From: Gammaproteobacteria bacterium
GTDB taxonomy: Bacteria; Pseudomonadota; Gammaproteobacteria; Steroidobacterales; Rariloculaceae
DNA: 56,592 nucleotides
Assembly: GCA_036526155.1 (NCBI GenBank)
Contig: DATCZB010000147.1
Coordinates: 1 to 56,592, forward strand
Direction: 5' to 3'
The notes under the pieces were generated by a model, which had not been told where the DNA came from, did no database searches, and saw only the letters and a list, made by a program, of their open reading frames with translations. Below, piece after piece: positions 5,606-36,133 of the stretch (positions are counted from its first letter, which is position 1; every line of letters starts with the position of its first letter). Both the position numbers and the translations under genes were made by a program.

Positions 5606-6378
5606 CTCCGTGCTTCAGCCGCTGAGGGTTCGGGCTGCTTCGGCAAAGCGGTGTCGAGGTCGGGCTCGCCGAGCCGCTCCAGGATGGCGCGGCGCGTCTC
5701 TCGCGCCAGGCTCAGCTCGTCCTCGAAGTCAGCAGTCGCGATCCGCGGGCAAAACTCGACGGTCAGTGGGCCCGGCCGCGGCAGCCACGAGTCCGCGGGC
5801 AATTTGGTGCGCGAGCCGGTGATGACGACCGGCACAATCGAGAGCTTGCCCAGCATCGCCGCGCGAAAAGCGCCCATTCGGAACGGCTTGAGCCCGGGTT
5901 CGCGATCGAACGTGCCTTCGGGAAAGACGGCAAGTGCCTGACCTTCGCGCGCTGATTCCACCAGCCTGCGTGCGCTGCGGTGCCGGTGATTGGCGCTCGA
6001 CCGGTCGACGAATTGCGAGCCGATCCGACGCAGCACGAATCCGGCAATCGGCACGCGCACCATCTCGCGCTTGATGAGAAAGGTGTAGTGCGGCGGCAGG
6101 ACGGCAGCCAGAATGATGCCGTCGAGATAACTCTGGTGATTGGCGACGACAACGGCACTGTCATCCTCGCCGAGTGCCGTGCCGCGAACCGTCACGCCGC
6201 TGCCGATCAGTCGCAGCATCGTCGCGGCGCCCCGGCGGGCGACGGCGCGGCGCCGGTCCTCACCCGGCAGCAGCAGGCAGCACACCGCCACCGGAATGAC
6301 GACGAAAATGAGCATGAACCAGGCGTATCCGGCATACAGAATACGGACCGAAAAGCTTGCAATTGCGGTAAATGGCAC
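5602..6378 (-). CDS. 1-acyl-sn-glycerol-3-phosphate / lysophospholipid acyltransferase family protein
   Basis: 258 aa with an N-terminal TM helix, the NHQSYLDG (HX4D) motif and the FPEGT motif of PlsC-family acyltransferases. Confidence 0.8.
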   Translation of the reverse strand: MPFTAIASFSVRILYAGYAWFMLIFVVIPVAVCCLLLPGEDRRRAVARRGAATMLRLIGSGVTVRGTALGEDDSAVVVANHQSYLDGIILAAVLPPHYTFLIKREMVRVPIAGFVLRRIGSQFVDRSSANHRHRSARRLVESAREGQALAVFPEGTFDREPGLKPFRMGAFRAAMLGKLSIVPVVITGSRTKLPADSWLPRPGPLTVEFCPRIATADFEDELSLARETRRAILERLGEPDLDTALPKQPEPSAAEARS

Positions 6379-6697
6379 GGTTATGTCAACGCTGCGGGTA
6401 AGCTGGCGGCGAAAATCAAGTGCAGAACTGATAATTTCTGTGACTTGCTTCTCTTTATGTTAATGCTCCGGGGTATTTGTGATTCGGTTCACGCTGATGC
6501 GCTGGAGCCGTAAGCATACTGCCGGCTGTTGCCCTGAGGATGCGGTAGCCCTGAAGCTTTGATGCAACGCGGTGAATTATATCGGAATCGTTGCAGCCCC
6601 AGTGGGACTGACCGCATTTTTCTGAGCTGCCGAGACGCAATGGACTGCGTCTGGGTGGATAGCTCGGATGGGCGTACGGTTAAGGATTAACGGCACT

Positions 6698-7642
6698 ATG
6701 GCGCACAATTTTTTGCATCACGAAAGCACGGGAACGGTTGCCGACGCTGCTAAGGATCCGAAGGCGATGATTGACCGCTTTCTCGACGCGATTTGGATGG
6801 AACGGGGCCTGTCGGAGAACACGCTCGGCGCCTATCGCGCCGATCTCGTCGCTCTGAATCAACGCCTCGAAAGTAAATCGGTCGAGCTCGTCAAGGCTCA
6901 GCGTGCCGACATCATGGATTACATTGCCTGGCGCGTTGAGGGTGGCGCGAAGCCGCGCTCGACAGCAAGGCAGCTATCGAGCTTCCGCCGCTTCTATCGC
7001 TACCTGCTGCGCGAGGGCGTCGTCAGCGAGGACCCCACGGTCAATATCGCGATGCCGAAGATCGGCCGGTCACTGCCGCAATCGCTAAGCGAGCAGGACG
7101 TCGAGGCCCTGCTTTCCGCGCCTAAAGTAGCCGACCCGCTCGGTCACCGTGATCGCGCGATGCTCGAGGTGCTGTACGCCACCGGTGTGCGCGTCTCCGA
7201 GCTCATCAACCTCAAGCTGAGTCAGATCAATCTGAACCAGGGCGTCCTTCGTATTGTCGGCAAGGGCGATCGTGAACGGCTGATCCCGCTCGGCGACGAG
7301 GCGCAGGACTGGATCCGCGAGTTCAACGAGGGCCCGCGAGGCGAGATTCTGCTCGAGCGCCAGACCGAGTACCTGTTCCCGACCCGTCGCGGCGATCGCA
7401 TGACGCGGCAGGCGTTCTGGCACATCATCAAACGCTATGCGAAGAAGGCGGGCATCGAAAAGAAGATGTCGCCGCATACCGTCAGGCATGCATTCGCGAC
7501 GCATCTGCTGAACAATGGCGCCGATCTTCGCGTGGTGCAGCTGCTGCTCGGGCATAGCGACGTGTCGACGACCCAGATTTACACGCACGTTGCCCGCGAG
7601 CGGATGAAGGACCTGCATTCGCGCCACCATCCGCGGGGCTGA
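6698..7642 (+). CDS. xerD: site-specific tyrosine recombinase XerD
   Basis: IDRFLDAIWMERGLSENTLGAYRADL N-terminus and the catalytic region HTVRHAFATHLL...LLGHSDVSTTQIYTHV. It lies upstream of dsbC, as in E. coli. The ORF opens at 6668; plausible starts are 6698 and 6767. Confidence 0.9.
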   Translation: MAHNFLHHESTGTVADAAKDPKAMIDRFLDAIWMERGLSENTLGAYRADLVALNQRLESKSVELVKAQRADIMDYIAWRVEGGAKPRSTARQLSSFRRFYRYLLREGVVSEDPTVNIAMPKIGRSLPQSLSEQDVEALLSAPKVADPLGHRDRAMLEVLYATGVRVSELINLKLSQINLNQGVLRIVGKGDRERLIPLGDEAQDWIREFNEGPRGEILLERQTEYLFPTRRGDRMTRQAFWHIIKRYAKKAGIEKKMSPHTVRHAFATHLLNNGADLRVVQLLLGHSDVSTTQIYTHVARERMKDLHSRHHPRG

Positions 7643-7694
7643 ACATCCCCACAAGTGTTAGAATCCAGTCAAAACCACGACTGAGACGACGATC

Positions 7695-8417
7695 GTGAAC
7701 AAAAGCTGGATACTGATACCTCTGGTCCTCGTGCTCCCAGGCGTCCTGGCACAGGAAGCTCTGCAGCCAACCCGCGAAGATATTGCCGCCCGGCTCAACG
7801 GCGTCGTGGCCGAAGATCTCAAAGACTCGGCGCTCGACGGTTTCTACGAGGTCAACGTCGGCTCCAGGGTGGCGTACATCAGCGTCGACGGCCGCTTTCT
7901 GTTCGAGGGCGAGCTCTACGATCTGCAGCAGAGCCAGAACCTGACCGAGGTCTCGCGCTCGCGAGCCCGCGTGGACCTGCTCGAAGACGTCGACCGCGAG
8001 ACGATGATCGTCTTCTCGCCCGAGGAAGGCCCGGTCGAGCACACGATAACGATCTTCACGGATATCGACTGCGGCTATTGCCGCCAGTTTCACCGTGAGA
8101 TAGAGCAGGTGACGGCGCTCGGAATCGAGGTCCAGTATCTGTTCTTCCCGCGGACCGGCCCCGATACGGATTCCTGGTTCAAGGCGGAGCGGGTCTGGTG
8201 CGCCGAAGATCGCAACTCGGCCCTGACCAGCGCGAAGCTCGGCGGACACGTGCCGGAAGTCACCTGTGTCGCCAATCCTGTGGCGGCTCACTATGACATT
8301 GGCAACCAGGTCGGAGTCACCGGCACACCATCGATCTACACGTCCGGTGGACGACATATCGGCGGCTACCTGCCGCCTCAGCAACTGCTAGCAACCCTGA
8401 CTCAGCTCGTTCAGTAA
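7695..8417 (+). CDS. dsbC: thiol:disulfide interchange protein DsbC
   Basis: Signal peptide, a dimerisation N-domain and a thioredoxin fold with the CGYC active site. Sits in the xerD-dsbC synteny block. Confidence 0.85.
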   Translation: MNKSWILIPLVLVLPGVLAQEALQPTREDIAARLNGVVAEDLKDSALDGFYEVNVGSRVAYISVDGRFLFEGELYDLQQSQNLTEVSRSRARVDLLEDVDRETMIVFSPEEGPVEHTITIFTDIDCGYCRQFHREIEQVTALGIEVQYLFFPRTGPDTDSWFKAERVWCAEDRNSALTSAKLGGHVPEVTCVANPVAAHYDIGNQVGVTGTPSIYTSGGRHIGGYLPPQQLLATLTQLVQ

Positions 8418-15581: not shown

Positions 15582-15668
15582 TGGTGCCGGGAGAGAGACT
15601 CGAACTCTCACGGGTTTAACCCCACCGGATTTTGAGTCCGGCGCGTCTACCAATTCCGCCACCCCGGC
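15582..15668 (-). tRNA. tRNA-Leu (anticodon CAA)
   Basis: The reverse complement reads GCCGGGGTGGCGGAATTGGTAGACGCGCCGGACTCAAAATCCGGTGGGGTTAAACCCGTGAGAGTTCGAGTCTCTCTCCCGGCACCA. It has a 7-bp acceptor stem, the anticodon stem CCGGA/TCCGG with loop CTCAAAA, a long variable arm, the T-arm GAGAG-TTCGAGT-CTCTC and an encoded CCA. Confidence 0.92.
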
Positions 15669-32057: not shown

Positions 32058-33149
32058 GTGACGGCCGCACGCCGCCACTTCACCGTTGACGGCCAGTTTT
32101 CGATGCATCTCGGAGGCCGGCTCGAATCGCCGACGATCGCCTACGAGACCTGGGGTGAGCTCGACCAGAATCGCAGCAACGCGATCCTGATCTTCACCGG
32201 GCTCTCACCGTCGGCTCACGCGGCATCGAGCAAGAACGACCCGACCCCGGGCTGGTGGGAGGAAATCATCGGGCCCGGCAAGCCGATCGACACGCGCCGG
32301 TTCTTCGTCATTTGCGTGAACTCGCTCGGCAGCTGTTTCGGCTCGACGGGACCGGCGTCGATCGACCCGAAGACAGGCGAGCTTTATCGCTTGAGCTTTC
32401 CCGTGCTGTCTCTCGAGGACGTCGCCCGCGCCGGCTACGAGACGCTGAAGTATCTGGGCATCGAGCGCCTGCACGCAATCGTCGGGCCCTCGATGGGCGG
32501 GATGACGACGCTGGCATTCGAGATGCAGTTCCCCGGGCTTGCCGACGCAATGGTATTGATGTCGACGGGCACGCGCTCCCTGCCGTTTTCGATCGCGTTG
32601 CGCTCGCTGCAGCGCGAGATGATTCGCAAGGACCCGGCCTGGCGGGGCGGGGAGTATCCGATCGACGCGCCGCCGCTGACCGGCATGCGGCTCGCCCGCA
32701 AGCTCGGCATGATCACCTATCGATCGGCGGAAGAGTGGAGGCTGCGTTTCGGCCGCGAGCGCGTCGGTGCCGAGCACGTGGAGGGCGACCCCTTCGGCAT
32801 GAACTTCGAAGTCGAGTCCTACCTCGAGCACCACGCCAAGAAGTTTGTCGGCCAGTTCGACGCCAACTGTTATCTTTACCTCTCACGCGCGAGCGACCTG
32901 TTCGATATTGCCGATCACGGCGCATCGGTTGCGGGCGCGCTCGGCAGGGTCCAGGTCAAACGGGCCCTGGTCATCGGCGTGAAGACCGATTTCCTGTTCC
33001 CGATCCAGCAGCAGCAGGAGCTGGCCGACGGCCTCTCGGGCCACGGCCGCAGCGTCGAATATCATGAATTCGAATCTTTGCAGGGTCACGACGCGTTTCT
33101 CGTCGATATGGACCGTTATCGACCGACGATCGCGAAATTCTTGGCCTGA
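32058..33149 (+). CDS. metX: homoserine O-acyltransferase (MetX family)
   Basis: 363 aa with an alpha/beta hydrolase fold, the nucleophile elbow GPSMGGM and the C-terminal HDAFL. GTG start. No metW follows. Confidence 0.85.
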   Translation: MTAARRHFTVDGQFSMHLGGRLESPTIAYETWGELDQNRSNAILIFTGLSPSAHAASSKNDPTPGWWEEIIGPGKPIDTRRFFVICVNSLGSCFGSTGPASIDPKTGELYRLSFPVLSLEDVARAGYETLKYLGIERLHAIVGPSMGGMTTLAFEMQFPGLADAMVLMSTGTRSLPFSIALRSLQREMIRKDPAWRGGEYPIDAPPLTGMRLARKLGMITYRSAEEWRLRFGRERVGAEHVEGDPFGMNFEVESYLEHHAKKFVGQFDANCYLYLSRASDLFDIADHGASVAGALGRVQVKRALVIGVKTDFLFPIQQQQELADGLSGHGRSVEYHEFESLQGHDAFLVDMDRYRPTIAKFLA

Positions 33150-33151
33150 CG

Positions 33152-33562
33152 CTATTGCGCGTCGCGGCTCGAGCCCGCGAGCATCCGCTGGCCAGTGCTT
33201 GTCAGAACGATTGATTCCGCATTCGCCAGATTACTGCCGTCGCGCGCGAGGGCGCCGTCCACGGTGATGACGTCACCGGGCTTGAGCGAGTCGCGCTTCC
33301 AGCCGAGACGCAGCAGCGCGTTCGGCCCGCCCATTTCCAGCGCCCAATTAACGGCCTCGCCCGAGTTGTCATCGGTGACGTCGATATAGATGAAGATGTG
33401 CGGGTTGGTCCACTGGACGTCCGTCACCGTGCCCGTCAGCGTGACGGTTTTGTCGGCATCGTATTGAGCCGGAAACGAGTGGTGCGCGCTGGCGGTTGCG
33501 ACAACGGCAGCAAGCACGGCAATCAGTGTCAGCCTTCGCTTCAATCTTGCGGTCACGCTCAT
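33152..33562 (-). CDS. DUF6152-like small secreted protein
   Basis: 136 aa. Signal peptide ending ATASA, mature N-terminus HHSFPAQYD, then VQWTNPHI. This matches my recollection of the DUF6152 signature (HHSF...D....V.L.G.V....W.NPH). Confidence 0.7.
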   Translation of the reverse strand: MSVTARLKRRLTLIAVLAAVVATASAHHSFPAQYDADKTVTLTGTVTDVQWTNPHIFIYIDVTDDNSGEAVNWALEMGGPNALLRLGWKRDSLKPGDVITVDGALARDGSNLANAESIVLTSTGQRMLAGSSRDAQ

Positions 33563-33585
33563 CTCATGCTCCTCGCCGGGCAGGT

Positions 33586-34440
33586 CTAGTTGGGGAGCCC
33601 CATGCGCTCGACGAACTGCTCGTTCTCGAGACAGATCTCGTCGATGAGCTCTCCGTCCACAACGATGCGTTGTCGCAGGTTGACCGTCCAGGGCTCTGTG
33701 TATGCTCTCGGATCATCGACCGTGACCTGAATCTCCAGGTGGCCGAAGTCGGGCCGGCGGATTTCCTCGCGGACTCTGGCGGCCTCGGTGATGACGCTGC
33801 CGCTCCAGTCGATCCAGCTCCCGTCACGAACGCCGATCGTGTCGACGACGAGCGTGTCGCCCGACCAATGCGCCGAGGAATAGCCCTGCCATGAAGGCGT
33901 CGGATCATCCGGTAAGGGTCGGGCGTCGGTAAAGACCTGGCGGTAGCCTGCGTTCATCTCGTTCAGGACGACGAGCAGATCCGGCGTGTGTACGAATTTG
34001 AGCATGTGCGGCAGGCCGTAAGCCCGCAGGAAGTTGTCCGGCAGGCAACGAATATGCGGGTCGTTGATCGCGAGGTTGGCGGAGTGCTCCTCGACGATAG
34101 GTACGAGCCAGTCCTGGTAGGGGAGCCCCTCGGGCAGATCGACGCCGATGTTCTGCATATGCCTGGAGGACGGCAGGGTGAAGGGGTCGCTCGGGCTTTC
34201 CTCGCCTTCGGGCGTCACATCGGAAATCCAGATTCCCGACAGGTCGGGCTTGCCGTCGGCGAGTCGTGGTGCCGGGGCCGACATGTCGACCGACCCGTCA
34301 GCCCGCCGAGGCACGTCGGCGGTCGGGTAGCCGATCCACTGGGCGCTGGCGGCGATGCCTAGCAGAGCCAGGCCGGTGCCAGCGAACGCGGAAATCAGGG
34401 CGCTTCGGTTTCGATCCATGGGCAGATAGTAAATCGTCAT
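33586..34440 (-). CDS. secreted protein of unknown function (partner of the DUF6152-like module)
   Basis: Signal peptide (LALLGIAASA|QW) and conserved blocks NDPHIRCLP, HWSGDTLVVDT and DDPRAYTEPW, shared with the C-terminal part of 35018..36133. Start is at 34440 or 34419. The upstream part of the 34749 ORF is non-coding-like. Confidence 0.65.
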   Translation of the reverse strand: MTIYYLPMDRNRSALISAFAGTGLALLGIAASAQWIGYPTADVPRRADGSVDMSAPAPRLADGKPDLSGIWISDVTPEGEESPSDPFTLPSSRHMQNIGVDLPEGLPYQDWLVPIVEEHSANLAINDPHIRCLPDNFLRAYGLPHMLKFVHTPDLLVVLNEMNAGYRQVFTDARPLPDDPTPSWQGYSSAHWSGDTLVVDTIGVRDGSWIDWSGSVITEAARVREEIRRPDFGHLEIQVTVDDPRAYTEPWTVNLRQRIVVDGELIDEICLENEQFVERMGLPN

Positions 34441-34784
34441 TCTGGCCTTTGCGAGTTGTCGGATCCGGTTCGGATTCGCCCCCGGCGAGCAGATGCACGC
34501 TCCCGAAGAACGCTTGGCAGCTGCAGCAGGCAGCATGCCGCGGTGACCGTGAGCAAGCGCAGGTGCAGAATGTTCCTGACGAGGCAGGAACCAAGGCGGA
34601 GCAGATTTTCCGTGTAGATCAGAGCTTCCGTCGTGTTCTCCCGCGCGCCCTCGGGGCCTGGAGTTACGATAGATCCGGGTCAGGCCTCTCGTAAGATGGA
34701 TTCTCGACAAAAACAGGCCATTTGTGCCAAGAGTATTCGGCAGTCGCACGCTTCGTCAGGCATACGCGGCCGAGGCGGGTCGTT

Positions 34785-34961
34785 GTGAGACGTAAATTTC
34801 TGGCTTCCGCTATCGTTGTAACGGGCCTGGTCCTCGCCGTCGCGGGCATCTGTATCGGTGAAGTCGACGACGCTCCCGGCGCCATGCTCATGGGTATCTT
34901 GCTGCTGATTGGCGCGATCTGGGTTGCCATCAGGGTCGTAAGGCGCAGATGGGCTTCCTAG
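34785..34961 (+). CDS. possible small two-TM membrane protein
   Basis: GTG-initiated reading frame of about 58 aa (RRKFLASAIVVTGLVLAVAGICIG...MLMGILLLIGAIWVAIRVVRRRW), with two hydrophobic helices and positive-inside ends. It lies 56 nt upstream of the fusion gene. No homology support. Confidence 0.3.
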   Translation: MRRKFLASAIVVTGLVLAVAGICIGEVDDAPGAMLMGILLLIGAIWVAIRVVRRRWAS

Positions 34962-35017
34962 CCCGATTTTCGGGAGTAGAATCACGCTTTGGCTCGAATG
35001 CGTATGGAGGGGGAGCT

Positions 35018-36133
35018 ATGTCGCGATCATCTGGACTGAATGCAGTGGCCAGCGTGGCTGCTATCTGGTTAGCTTTCCACGCCTTGCCCGTCTGGAGCCA
35101 TCATTCGGTGGCCGCAGAGTTCGATACGAGTCAGCAGGGCGAGCTTCAGGGCGAGATCACGCGCGTCTGGTTCACGAATCCGCACGTCCGCTACCGGCTG
35201 ACGGTGACCAACGCCGACGGCTCCACCGAGGACTGGGAGCTGCAGGGCGGAAACGTCACCACGCTGCGTGGCCGGGGCTGGTTCGAGAATTCGATCGAGG
35301 TGGGTGACGAGGTCACGGTCTCCGGCAGTCTCGGCCGCGGTGGCGCGAAGAAGCTGCAGATTCGCCAGATGGTGAGCGCCGCTGGCGTGGAGGTCCCGCC
35401 GCCGGCGGAAGCGACTGCAACGACTCGCCGCGCGGGTGATCGCAACGCCGTAAACGCGAGCGCGGACTCGGATTACACCTACTCTGCCGGCGGCAACCGA
35501 TACCCGGTGGACATCACGGGCCCGTGGCGCAACACGTATCGCTGGACGGTGACGGTCAACGACCTCGAGCCCAAGCCGACGCCGTTCACGGCCGCAGGGC
35601 GGGCGCTGTTCGAGGCGACCGAGGCCTGGCACGATCCGTCGCTGCGCTGCGTCGCGCCGGGCCTGCCCCGCATTTTCGGCGCGCCTTACCATGCCGACAT
35701 CATCGACGCCGGCAATCACTACCTGATGGTCTACATCGAGCACAACACGCCGAGGCGCGTCTGGATGGATGGCCGCTCGGCGCCCTCCGACACGCCGCCG
35801 ACGCCGATGGGTTTCTCGGTCGGCCGCTGGGAAGGCAATGAGCTCGTCATCGAGACCACGCATCTGAGCGCTGCCTGGATCGACGGCTCAGGGCTGCCGA
35901 TGTCTGGCGAGGGGACCCGTATCGTCGAGCGCTATGTGCCGAGCGAAGACGGTCTGACGATCGATCGGAAGATGACGATTTACGACCCCTATTACACCGA
36001 GCCACTCGTGCGCCAGCGCTATTCGGCCCGCGACGACGCCGTCGATCTGACCGAGCAGGCGCCCTGCGATCCCGACAGCTACTTTAGAGATCTCGTTGCG
36101 ACTGGCAGGCTGGAGGAGCACTTCGCGCGTTAG
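35018..36133 (+). CDS. secreted fusion protein: DUF6152-like N-domain plus a domain homologous to 33586..34440
   Basis: ATG at 35018 preceded by GGAGGGGGA. Signal peptide ending VWS, then HHSVAAEFD...VWFTNPHV (DUF6152-like), then HDPSLRCVAPGLPR...GRWEGNELVIET...YDPYYTEPL (partner-like). Confidence 0.7.
   Translation: MSRSSGLNAVASVAAIWLAFHALPVWSHHSVAAEFDTSQQGELQGEITRVWFTNPHVRYRLTVTNADGSTEDWELQGGNVTTLRGRGWFENSIEVGDEVTVSGSLGRGGAKKLQIRQMVSAAGVEVPPPAEATATTRRAGDRNAVNASADSDYTYSAGGNRYPVDITGPWRNTYRWTVTVNDLEPKPTPFTAAGRALFEATEAWHDPSLRCVAPGLPRIFGAPYHADIIDAGNHYLMVYIEHNTPRRVWMDGRSAPSDTPPTPMGFSVGRWEGNELVIETTHLSAAWIDGSGLPMSGEGTRIVERYVPSEDGLTIDRKMTIYDPYYTEPLVRQRYSARDDAVDLTEQAPCDPDSYFRDLVATGRLEEHFAR

Follow-up and report, generated by a model that had tools for sequence, protein, structure and literature searches.

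Three adjacent genes at positions 33152–36133 of a 56,592-nt stretch of contig DATCZB010000147.1 (the window, that is, the whole of the DNA analyzed) encode two secreted modules in two forms: as a split pair, genes B and A, on the minus strand, and as a single fusion protein, gene C, on the plus strand. Judged by sequence, A and B each supply one half of a two-module secreted protein that is conserved, and C carries both modules in one chain. One module is DUF6152, modeled as an oligonucleotide/oligosaccharide-binding (OB) fold with an invariant pair of histidines at its predicted mature N terminus; the other is a barrel with two conserved cysteines. The association recurs across many genomes of soil and sediment bacteria, and we consider it highly probable that the two modules work together.

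Split and Fused Forms in One Locus

The three open reading frames that the original prediction had placed here are all present, and A, B, and C alike begin with a Sec-type signal peptide. The genes and their spacers are as follows.

33152–33562, minus strand: gene A, a 136-aa secreted DUF6152 protein, the OB-fold module (Pfam PF19649, E = 8.8e-31)
33563–33585, minus strand: the 23-nt spacer between B and A, which carries a GAGGAG ribosome-binding site ahead of A's ATG
33586–34419, minus strand: gene B, a 277-aa secreted protein with a signal peptide; an alternative ATG at 34440 gives 284 aa
34420–35017, no strand assigned: the spacer between the divergent genes B and C, unconserved among relatives
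35018–36133, plus strand: gene C, a 371-aa secreted fusion, with a GGAGG site before its ATG

Profile and pairwise searches both support the homology that had been proposed. The 136-aa protein, earlier called DUF6152-like, matches PF19649 at 106.3 bits over model positions 2–94 of 98 (gathering cutoff 27 bits), and residues 20–110 of C match the same model at 70.6 bits (E = 1.2e-19, model positions 4–93). BLASTP aligns residues 26–119 of A with residues 27–119 of C (34% identity, E = 7e-16) and residues 121–267 of B with residues 200–343 of C (31% identity, E = 4e-14). These alignments are significant, as expected of a split pair and a fusion of the same two secreted modules, and the A-like and B-like stretches of C do not overlap. 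A mixed alignment was divided in two, and the hidden Markov models (HMMs) made from its halves match only A, B, and C in the 56.6-kb window. Within C the order runs from DUF6152 to barrel, whereas in the split pair the barrel gene precedes the DUF6152 gene, the reversal that had been described. The 23-nt gap between B and A was likewise confirmed and, because it holds a GAGGAG ribosome-binding site, indicates that B then A form a two-gene operon.

One detail of gene structure was revised. The description of B as a protein of about 270 aa starting at 34440 was right about the gene but probably not about the start, which is more likely the ATG at 34419 (277 aa, MDRNRS...), because 277-aa orthologues share this length and start; the ATG at 34440 (284 aa) could serve as an alternative. 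After the signal peptide, the predicted mature chain of B begins QWIGYP; the DLSGIW motif comes next, and a helical insert then leads to a modeled eight-strand calycin-like barrel. In A, residues 1–26 form the predicted Sec signal peptide, with cleavage between ASA and HH placed from the A-x-A pattern. Protein C consists of a signal peptide (1–27), the DUF6152 OB module (28 to ~125), a linker, and a B-type barrel (~163–371).

Homology to non-overlapping parts of one protein is the Rosetta-stone criterion, the classical basis for inferring a functional link. Like such pairs, A and B correspond to separate parts of C, in a relationship that recurs across many genomes; unlike them, the split and fused forms here are paralogues within one genome and locus.

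The barrel modules of B and C share the following landmarks (B numbered in its 277-aa form).

34228–34245, minus strand: DLSGIW motif of B, the equivalent of DITGPW in C
34045–34047, minus strand: Cys125 of B, in the RC.P block, the first of two Cys
33631–33633, minus strand: Cys263 of B (EICLEN), the second Cys, invariant in alignment A5
35510–35527, plus strand: DITGPW motif of C, at the start of the barrel module, carrying the invariant G-x-W
35648–35650, plus strand: Cys211 of C (LRCVAPGLPR)
36065–36067, plus strand: Cys350 of C (QAPCDPDS), the second of two Cys

B and C contain two cysteines each, and A contains none. In every architecture class, the column of Cys125 is 98–100% Cys and that of Cys263 at least 92% Cys. 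This conservation agrees with the earlier observation of two conserved Cys in both partner-type domains and supports the disulfide suggested there; Cys125 and Cys263 of B are likely bonded to each other.

Linkage of the Two Modules Across Genomes

We surveyed 82 loci, comprising 80 from a scan of one genome per GTDB species together with L001 and L002, and classified them with two domain HMMs, one for DUF6152 and one for the barrel. Fused to or beside a barrel module were 106 of the 119 DUF6152 domains (89%, a figure somewhat biased in that the loci were found through the barrel domain). The arrangements include 41 N-to-C fusions and, among adjacent pairs, 54 that start with the barrel gene and ~11 that start with the DUF6152 gene; ~45 barrel genes and 13 DUF6152 genes stand alone. 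DUF6152 without a barrel is thus rare in this sample, and its genes are preferentially adjacent or fused to the barrel partner, which supports the proposal of a single secreted unit made of both modules. In L012, a split pair with DUF6152 first, the two genes are separate and the second has its own signal peptide. The view from the DUF6152 side comprises four loci only (L083–L086), in each of which an A orthologue is preceded by a 282- to 294-aa protein without a Pfam match.

Both families are very large. More than 800 fusion homologues of ~360 aa carry PF19649, and B homologues number in the thousands, all annotated as hypothetical; no characterized function was found for the barrel family, in keeping with the original prediction. 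Searched exhaustively, a profile covering both modules recovers 17,849 clusters (50% identity) when matches up to E = 1e-3 are counted and 7,026 when the limit is E = 1e-10; metagenomes contain thousands of 90% clusters as well. The best 150 clusters include 47 N-to-C fusions, 7 tandem barrel-barrel proteins, and 3 apparent barrel-then-DUF6152 fusions. Two of these last three are probably merged gene calls, because they keep an internal signal peptide before HH.

The operon order B then A is kept in 40/40 non-acidobacterial loci with a B orthologue. B orthologues are 64–86% identical across lineages, and their flanking genes are unlike. Units occur in several copies per locus and genome: another unit lies within ~6 kb at 26 of the 40 B–A loci, and single genomes hold all three arrangements, the fusion and the adjacent pair in each order. 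When 215 flanking genes (105 of C orthologues and 110 of B–A pairs) were classified by Pfam, no third family was recurrent, and the pair therefore looks self-contained.

Genomic Setting and Closest Relatives

The locus interrupts a conserved gene order. Escherichia coli K-12 reads hisS-yfgM-bamB-der-yfgJ-xseA-guaB-guaA, and the window reads hisS-TPR_21-bamB-der-(metX, A, B, C, CNNM/CorC)-xseA-guaB-guaA; the comparison confirms the insertion between der and xseA that had been proposed from the window. The product of metX is an Abhydrolase_1 protein, and the transporter gene beside C is of the CNNM/CBS/CorC type.

In the closest relative found, the Logan contig L001 (85–92% protein identity), der-metX-A-B is followed in turn by a 121-aa gene, an OmpW gene, and C. 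These two genes, a lipoprotein-like one and an OmpW-family one at 6579–7587 of L001 (corresponding to window 34420–35017), are both absent from the window, and the B–C spacer has therefore undergone an indel. L003 carries a C orthologue of 81% identity in the order der-metX-C...corC, without a B–A pair and with corC 5 kb from C. Because L001 has two extra genes and L003 lacks B–A, the der–xseA block is, on these comparisons, a variable insertion, and the presence of B–A beside this fusion gene is lineage-specific. Synteny of B–A with der and metX was rejected as a conserved feature; it is not kept beyond L001. In L033 and L034 a B–A pair lies divergently beside a fusion gene, in the geometry of the window but with a different fusion paralogue, 28–29% identical to C.

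Local co-occurrence of B–A and C is, then, partly an accident of paralogue clustering. Carried further, this yields an account in which co-regulation or paralogue clustering is all there is, the modules do not cooperate physically, and the co-location is a by-product of tandem duplication. It would fit the unconserved co-location (no B–A in L003, two unrelated genes between B and C in L001), the frequent presence of a second unit near B–A pairs, and the many barrel genes that stand alone. It fits poorly with independent same-order fusions over the >800 homologues and nearly a third of the 150 representative clusters, with adjacency in both orders in Gammaproteobacteria and some Acidobacteriota, with a B-then-A operon kept in every non-acidobacterial B locus surveyed despite unrelated flanks, and with the predicted template modeling score (pTM) of 0.79 for the AlphaFold2 (AF2) model of the fusion. 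We regard clustering without cooperation as very improbable and retain cooperation of the two modules as the better account.

Given the lineage-specific co-location, the divergent spacer is not a conserved feature either. The divergent promoters earlier placed in 34441–35017 gained no support: these 577 nt are not conserved in relatives, and a sigma-70-like site looked for across the B–C spacer was not found. The spacer contains a small plus-strand ORF at 34785–34961 (58–79 aa, the longer form starting from 34722), which would encode two predicted hydrophobic helices (VRRKFLASAIVVTGLVLAVAGICIG...MLMGILLLIGAIWVAIRVV). Its GC content at third codon positions is 0.69, vs. 0.78–0.84 in neighboring genes, and 86 related loci yielded no counterpart. 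The ORF is therefore possibly spurious and is left out of the system. On the other side of the pair, metX (plus strand) and A (minus strand) converge with their stop codons 2 nt apart (33147–33154), which leaves no room for an intergenic terminator. The sole Rfam match within the window is a tRNA gene at 15585–15668 on the minus strand (58 bits).

An Invariant N-Terminal His-His Pair in DUF6152

Conservation in DUF6152 is concentrated on three histidines, which lie at the following positions in A and C.

33479–33484, minus strand: codons of His27-His28 of A, with which the predicted mature protein starts
33398–33406, minus strand: Asn-Pro-His motif of A (N53-P54-H55), located where OB strand 1 ends and contributing the third invariant His
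35099–35104, plus strand: codons of His28-His29 of C, at the predicted mature N terminus
35177–35185, plus strand: Asn-Pro-His motif of C (N54-P55-H56)

All 118 DUF6152 domains examined in the 82 loci have His-His directly after the predicted signal peptide, preceded by Ala, Gly, or Ser, and 117 of the 118 have a Pro-His motif 20–30 residues further on (Asn-Pro-His, or NPH, in 114). Only five columns are invariant in alignment A6, whose DUF6152 sequences are 25–73% identical. They hold the −1 residue (Ala), both histidines of His-His (His1 and His2), and, within NPH, the Pro and the His. The resulting triad is H27, H28, and H55 in A and H28, H29, and H56 in C. As a sequence pattern, His-His with Pro-His is a signature of secreted N-terminal-histidine metalloproteins. 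The 375-aa protein P0387, the sole apparently genuine barrel-then-DUF6152 fusion, has no HH, and NPY replaces its NPH. Its domain has no free N terminus, and the loss there of HH together with the NPH His is consistent with a function that requires a free N-terminal His.

A conserved N-terminal His after the signal peptide defines the histidine brace (PMC10952591), and a search built on the N-terminal-His principle found secreted metalloproteins, among them Ni-binding DUF4198, DUF6702, and the anglerases (PMC12537917). N-terminal His conservation is 79% in DUF4198 and 65% in DUF6702 (PMC12537917) and 100% in DUF6152 here; DUF6152 is not mentioned in that signal-strapping paper or its supplements. 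Like the N-terminal-His metalloproteins (the brace of lytic polysaccharide monooxygenases [LPMOs], CopC, YcnI, X325, DUF4198, DUF6702, and anglerases), DUF6152 combines a predicted mature His1 with a conserved downstream His. Unlike them, it is modeled as an OB fold rather than an Ig-like or cupredoxin-like β-sandwich, its residue 2 is also an invariant His, and it has no sequence homology to them. By analogy, DUF6152 may work as these proteins do. It is not assigned to the LPMO (AA9/AA10) or CopC families, given its OB-fold model and the absence of Pfam matches to LPMO_10, Glyco_hydro_61, and CopC.

Within Pfam, A and C both belong to DUF6152 by scores far above the gathering value (106 and 71 vs. 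27 bits). The entry has no function assigned, and the fusion, the mature His-His, and the partner family are undescribed in the literature searched. Its typical architecture is a stand-alone protein of ~110–140 aa; A (136 aa) fits this size, and C departs from it by an added 210-aa C-terminal domain.

Predicted Folds of the Two Modules

The AF2 model of C (predicted local distance difference test [pLDDT] 83.6) comprises a five-strand OB fold (~35–120), a poorly ordered linker, a helical segment, an eight-strand antiparallel barrel, and C-terminal helices. Because its pTM of 0.79 spans both domains, the model suggests a defined interdomain arrangement. The model of B (pLDDT 77.5) has a conserved extended arm followed by the same helical segment and barrel, and DSSP assigns eight consecutive barrel strands in both models.

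Structural comparison places the modules in fold classes only: in Foldseek searches against the PDB, neither had a match at E < 1e-3. The OB domain resembles OB folds of the SSB and LysRS types (E ~2e-3, target TM ~0.6). For both models, the best barrel matches are mostly calycins: CRABP2, CRBP1/4, FABP, streptavidin, Tp0751, and SAHS. Profile searches against PDB sequences returned no match to either module; a match of the DUF6152 profile to the adhesin 6xi3 (E = 5e-4) was discarded as spurious, as it sums four sub-threshold Ig-like repeat matches.

The calycin signature is a first-strand G-x-W that packs onto a conserved basic residue in the last strand. In the barrel family, the G-x-W of DLSGIW (B) and DITGPW (C) is invariant in alignments A2 and A5, as is an Arg near the C terminus, and the two resemble this signature at the sequence level. 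It also has many further invariant polar and aromatic residues (an Arg, Asp, Glu, Trp, and Tyr set) and a 75-residue helical insert with a DP..RC.P..PR motif between the G-x-W strand and the barrel. The likeness to calycins (lipocalins, FABP/CRABP, and avidins; Blc and ZinT/YodA) extends to the modeled eight-strand antiparallel barrel, the G-x-W near the start, and the Arg near the end. The differences are the weakness of the structural matches, the lack of any profile match to the lipocalin, FABP, avidin, or ZinT families, and the presence of the helical insert, a probable conserved disulfide, and a long conserved N-terminal arm (QW.YP..PR..DG..DLS), the last two without counterpart in those families. 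B itself has no Pfam or NCBIfam match even at E up to 1, and B, C, and 40 diverse relatives gave no barrel family in either database, the only matches being to accessory domains, DUF3471 (8/41) and OmpA (1). The barrel is calycin-like in predicted fold only and lies outside any curated family.

The mature N terminus of B is itself conserved. All 48 of the extracted B orthologues (L031–L082) have A/G-Q-W at the predicted cleavage site (A26-Q27-W28, window 34336–34344), and conversion of the Gln-Trp terminus to pyroglutamate is possible on this sequence. The arm that follows contains a tandemly repeated PR..DG..DLS motif (VPRRADGSVDMS / APRLADGKPDLS). Barrel genes that follow a DUF6152 gene, as in L012, do not have this arm.

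The structural matches raise the possibility of a role without metal, with the OB module acting as a lid or as a glycan-, peptide-, or envelope-binding domain and its histidines serving in acid-base chemistry, pH sensing, or structure. OB folds commonly bind oligosaccharides, oligonucleotides, and peptides; the Foldseek matches are SSB and anticodon-binding OB folds, not metalloproteins; and one family member has a C-terminal OmpA-like peptidoglycan-binding domain, which suggests envelope association. The flanking genes and upstream regions surveyed likewise show no metal-related context. The pattern of conservation points the other way: invariance in DUF6152 is confined to the His triad, one Pro, and position −1 of the signal-peptidase site, and the His pair is always at the predicted mature N terminus and is lost in the internal domain. 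Unless the free N terminus has a role, this pattern is difficult to account for. We judge a non-metal role unlikely.

Proposed Mechanism and Its Alternatives

Reading homology, secretion signals, folds, His and Cys conservation, and linkage together, we infer a periplasmic unit in which a metal-binding OB cap is docked on a ligand-holding barrel. We put this forward tentatively, with somewhat less than even confidence in the mechanism as a whole. The His-His of DUF6152, its NPH His, and the free N-terminal amine would hold a transition-metal ion in a predicted site that is histidine-brace-like or a facial N3 arrangement. The disulfide-stapled calycin-like barrel, with its invariant Arg, Asp, Glu, Trp, and Tyr set, would hold a small ligand or substrate. 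The modules would dock noncovalently in B + A and be tethered in C, with the metal cap sitting on the barrel, and the unit would be a metal-dependent small-molecule-binding or oxidizing protein of the periplasm.

Several observations weigh against this mechanism. Barrel-only proteins make up 92 of the 150 representative clusters, 11 B-like loci in Acidobacteriota have no adjacent DUF6152 gene, and the conserved barrel residues are alike in fused, paired, and lone forms. Because it is often alone and its conserved residues are the same regardless of partner, the barrel appears able to work without DUF6152. Its Foldseek matches are weak (E 0.016–0.1, TM ~0.4–0.55). The HH segment of the C model has pLDDT < 50, and in a canonical OB fold strand 1 separates the N terminus from the strand 1–2 loop, with one at each of its ends. 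Boxes for Fur, Zur, NikR, CueR, CusR, MntR, PhoB, and Crp, sought in the regions upstream of 47 B orthologues, score no better than in shuffled sequence, and no metal-homeostasis genes recur among the flanking genes surveyed. The same 47 upstream regions yielded no enriched 8-mer. A partner-specific ligand residue in the barrel was also considered and dropped, none being present among the fused, paired, and lone forms compared.

Two known proteins offer a different model: CusF, a periplasmic OB-fold chaperone of Cu/Ag, and ZinT, a calycin-like protein that binds Zn and has a His-rich stretch at its N terminus. Built on these, on CopC, and on the anglerases, this alternative is a metal capture and hand-off device, in which the His triad fishes Cu, Ni, or Zn from the periplasm and the barrel serves solely for docking or as a scaffold. 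The conserved N-terminal His-His and NPH would fit it equally well, and N-terminal-His metal binders without catalysis have precedents (PMC12537917). A CNNM/CorC-type divalent-cation transporter gene adjoins C in the window; in L003, however, corC lies 5 kb from C, and the gene is part of the variable backbone. Among the neighbors of the units, transporters, TonB receptors, and metal regulators are not recurrent, and no metal-regulator boxes were found upstream. Several unit copies per locus and genome would be unusual for a chaperone, and barrel residues that are invariant and polar irrespective of partner point to a function of the barrel's own. For these reasons a capture device seems to us an unlikely, if coherent, alternative.

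Comparison with CusF itself gives a similar picture. Both it and DUF6152 are small periplasmic OB folds of ~100 residues for which metal handling is known or proposed. The CusF metal site uses one His, two Met, and a Trp on the barrel face, whereas DUF6152 has no conserved Met column (alignment A6) and its invariant residues are the N-terminal HH and NPH. CusF gave no Pfam match at E up to 1 and was absent among the 50 Foldseek matches listed. Nor is there a CusCBA-type context, with 2 of 105 neighbors HlyD/CusB-like.

A more specific form of the docked-cap mechanism gives DUF6152 a histidine-brace-type Cu/Ni center on an OB fold and makes DUF6152 with the barrel a widespread class of soluble periplasmic oxidoreductases (oxygenases or peroxygenases). 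Small, probably hydrophobic substrates would occupy the barrel, and paralogues would provide differing specificities in soil and sediment Gammaproteobacteria and Acidobacteriota. We offer this version as speculation and think it improbable.

Other Arrangements and Neighbors

Barrel proteins of the B type extend beyond Gammaproteobacteria. Acidobacteriota metagenome-assembled genomes (MAGs) of Vicinamibacterales, Bryobacterales, and Terriglobia (L044, L050, L062, L070, L074, L076, and L079–L082) encode B-like proteins, 59–74% identical to gammaproteobacterial B, without an adjacent DUF6152 gene. Possible causes of this unusually high cross-phylum identity are horizontal transfer, very strong constraint, and mis-binning. 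B–A pairs 77–80% identical to those of the window also occur under the labels Klebsiella pneumoniae MAG (L071) and Enterobacteriaceae MAG (L067), most likely mis-binned or mislabeled metagenome contigs.

Six loci (L004, L005, L007, L008, L011, and L029) have a gene of ~127–150 aa without a Pfam match ~100–1500 nt downstream of the C orthologue, followed by a divergent stand-alone DUF6152 gene (27 bits, PF19649). This combination of fusion, small gene, and divergent DUF6152 gene may be a third arrangement of the system. Further barrel architectures include a barrel with an OmpA-like peptidoglycan-binding domain (P0297) and a barrel with DUF3471 (P0279 and seven others); tandem barrel-barrel proteins (P0249, P0255, P0262, P0265, and P0270) and a DUF6152 domain joined to a barrel through a ~110-aa insert (P0254, P0257, and P0264) are also present.

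A gene for an M49 peptidase (dipeptidyl-peptidase III, zinc) of ~700 aa adjoins the fusion gene, usually divergently, in L011–L019, L026, and L030. It is present at 8 of 28 C-orthologue loci (8 of 105 neighbors), all in one clade with 56–68% identity, and was set aside as a functional partner, since synteny within a single clade may be inherited. In L083 and L084 (positions 6009–7828), two related complete-genome-scale assemblies, the B–A operon lies divergently beside genes for an NHL-repeat protein and a thioredoxin/AhpC-type redoxin, a context seen only in these two.

Significance

Both folds and the N-terminal-His principle were known already. Literature searches on DUF6152, PF19649, Rariloculus, or N-terminal histidine with OB fold and periplasm found no papers. 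What we found no record of is their joint occurrence: an OB fold whose mature His-His is invariant, a dedicated calycin-like partner, split and fused forms in both gene orders, and very large families that are uncharacterized.

Neither Pfam nor NCBIfam has a model for the barrel family, and no function is assigned to DUF6152. Their linkage, together with the invariant His-His, turns two anonymous families into one system, a candidate class of secreted metalloproteins with a ligand-binding partner. If the His triad does bind metal, the N-terminal-histidine principle would extend to the OB fold and to a two-component architecture, and a family abundant in soil and sediment bacteria would gain a function.

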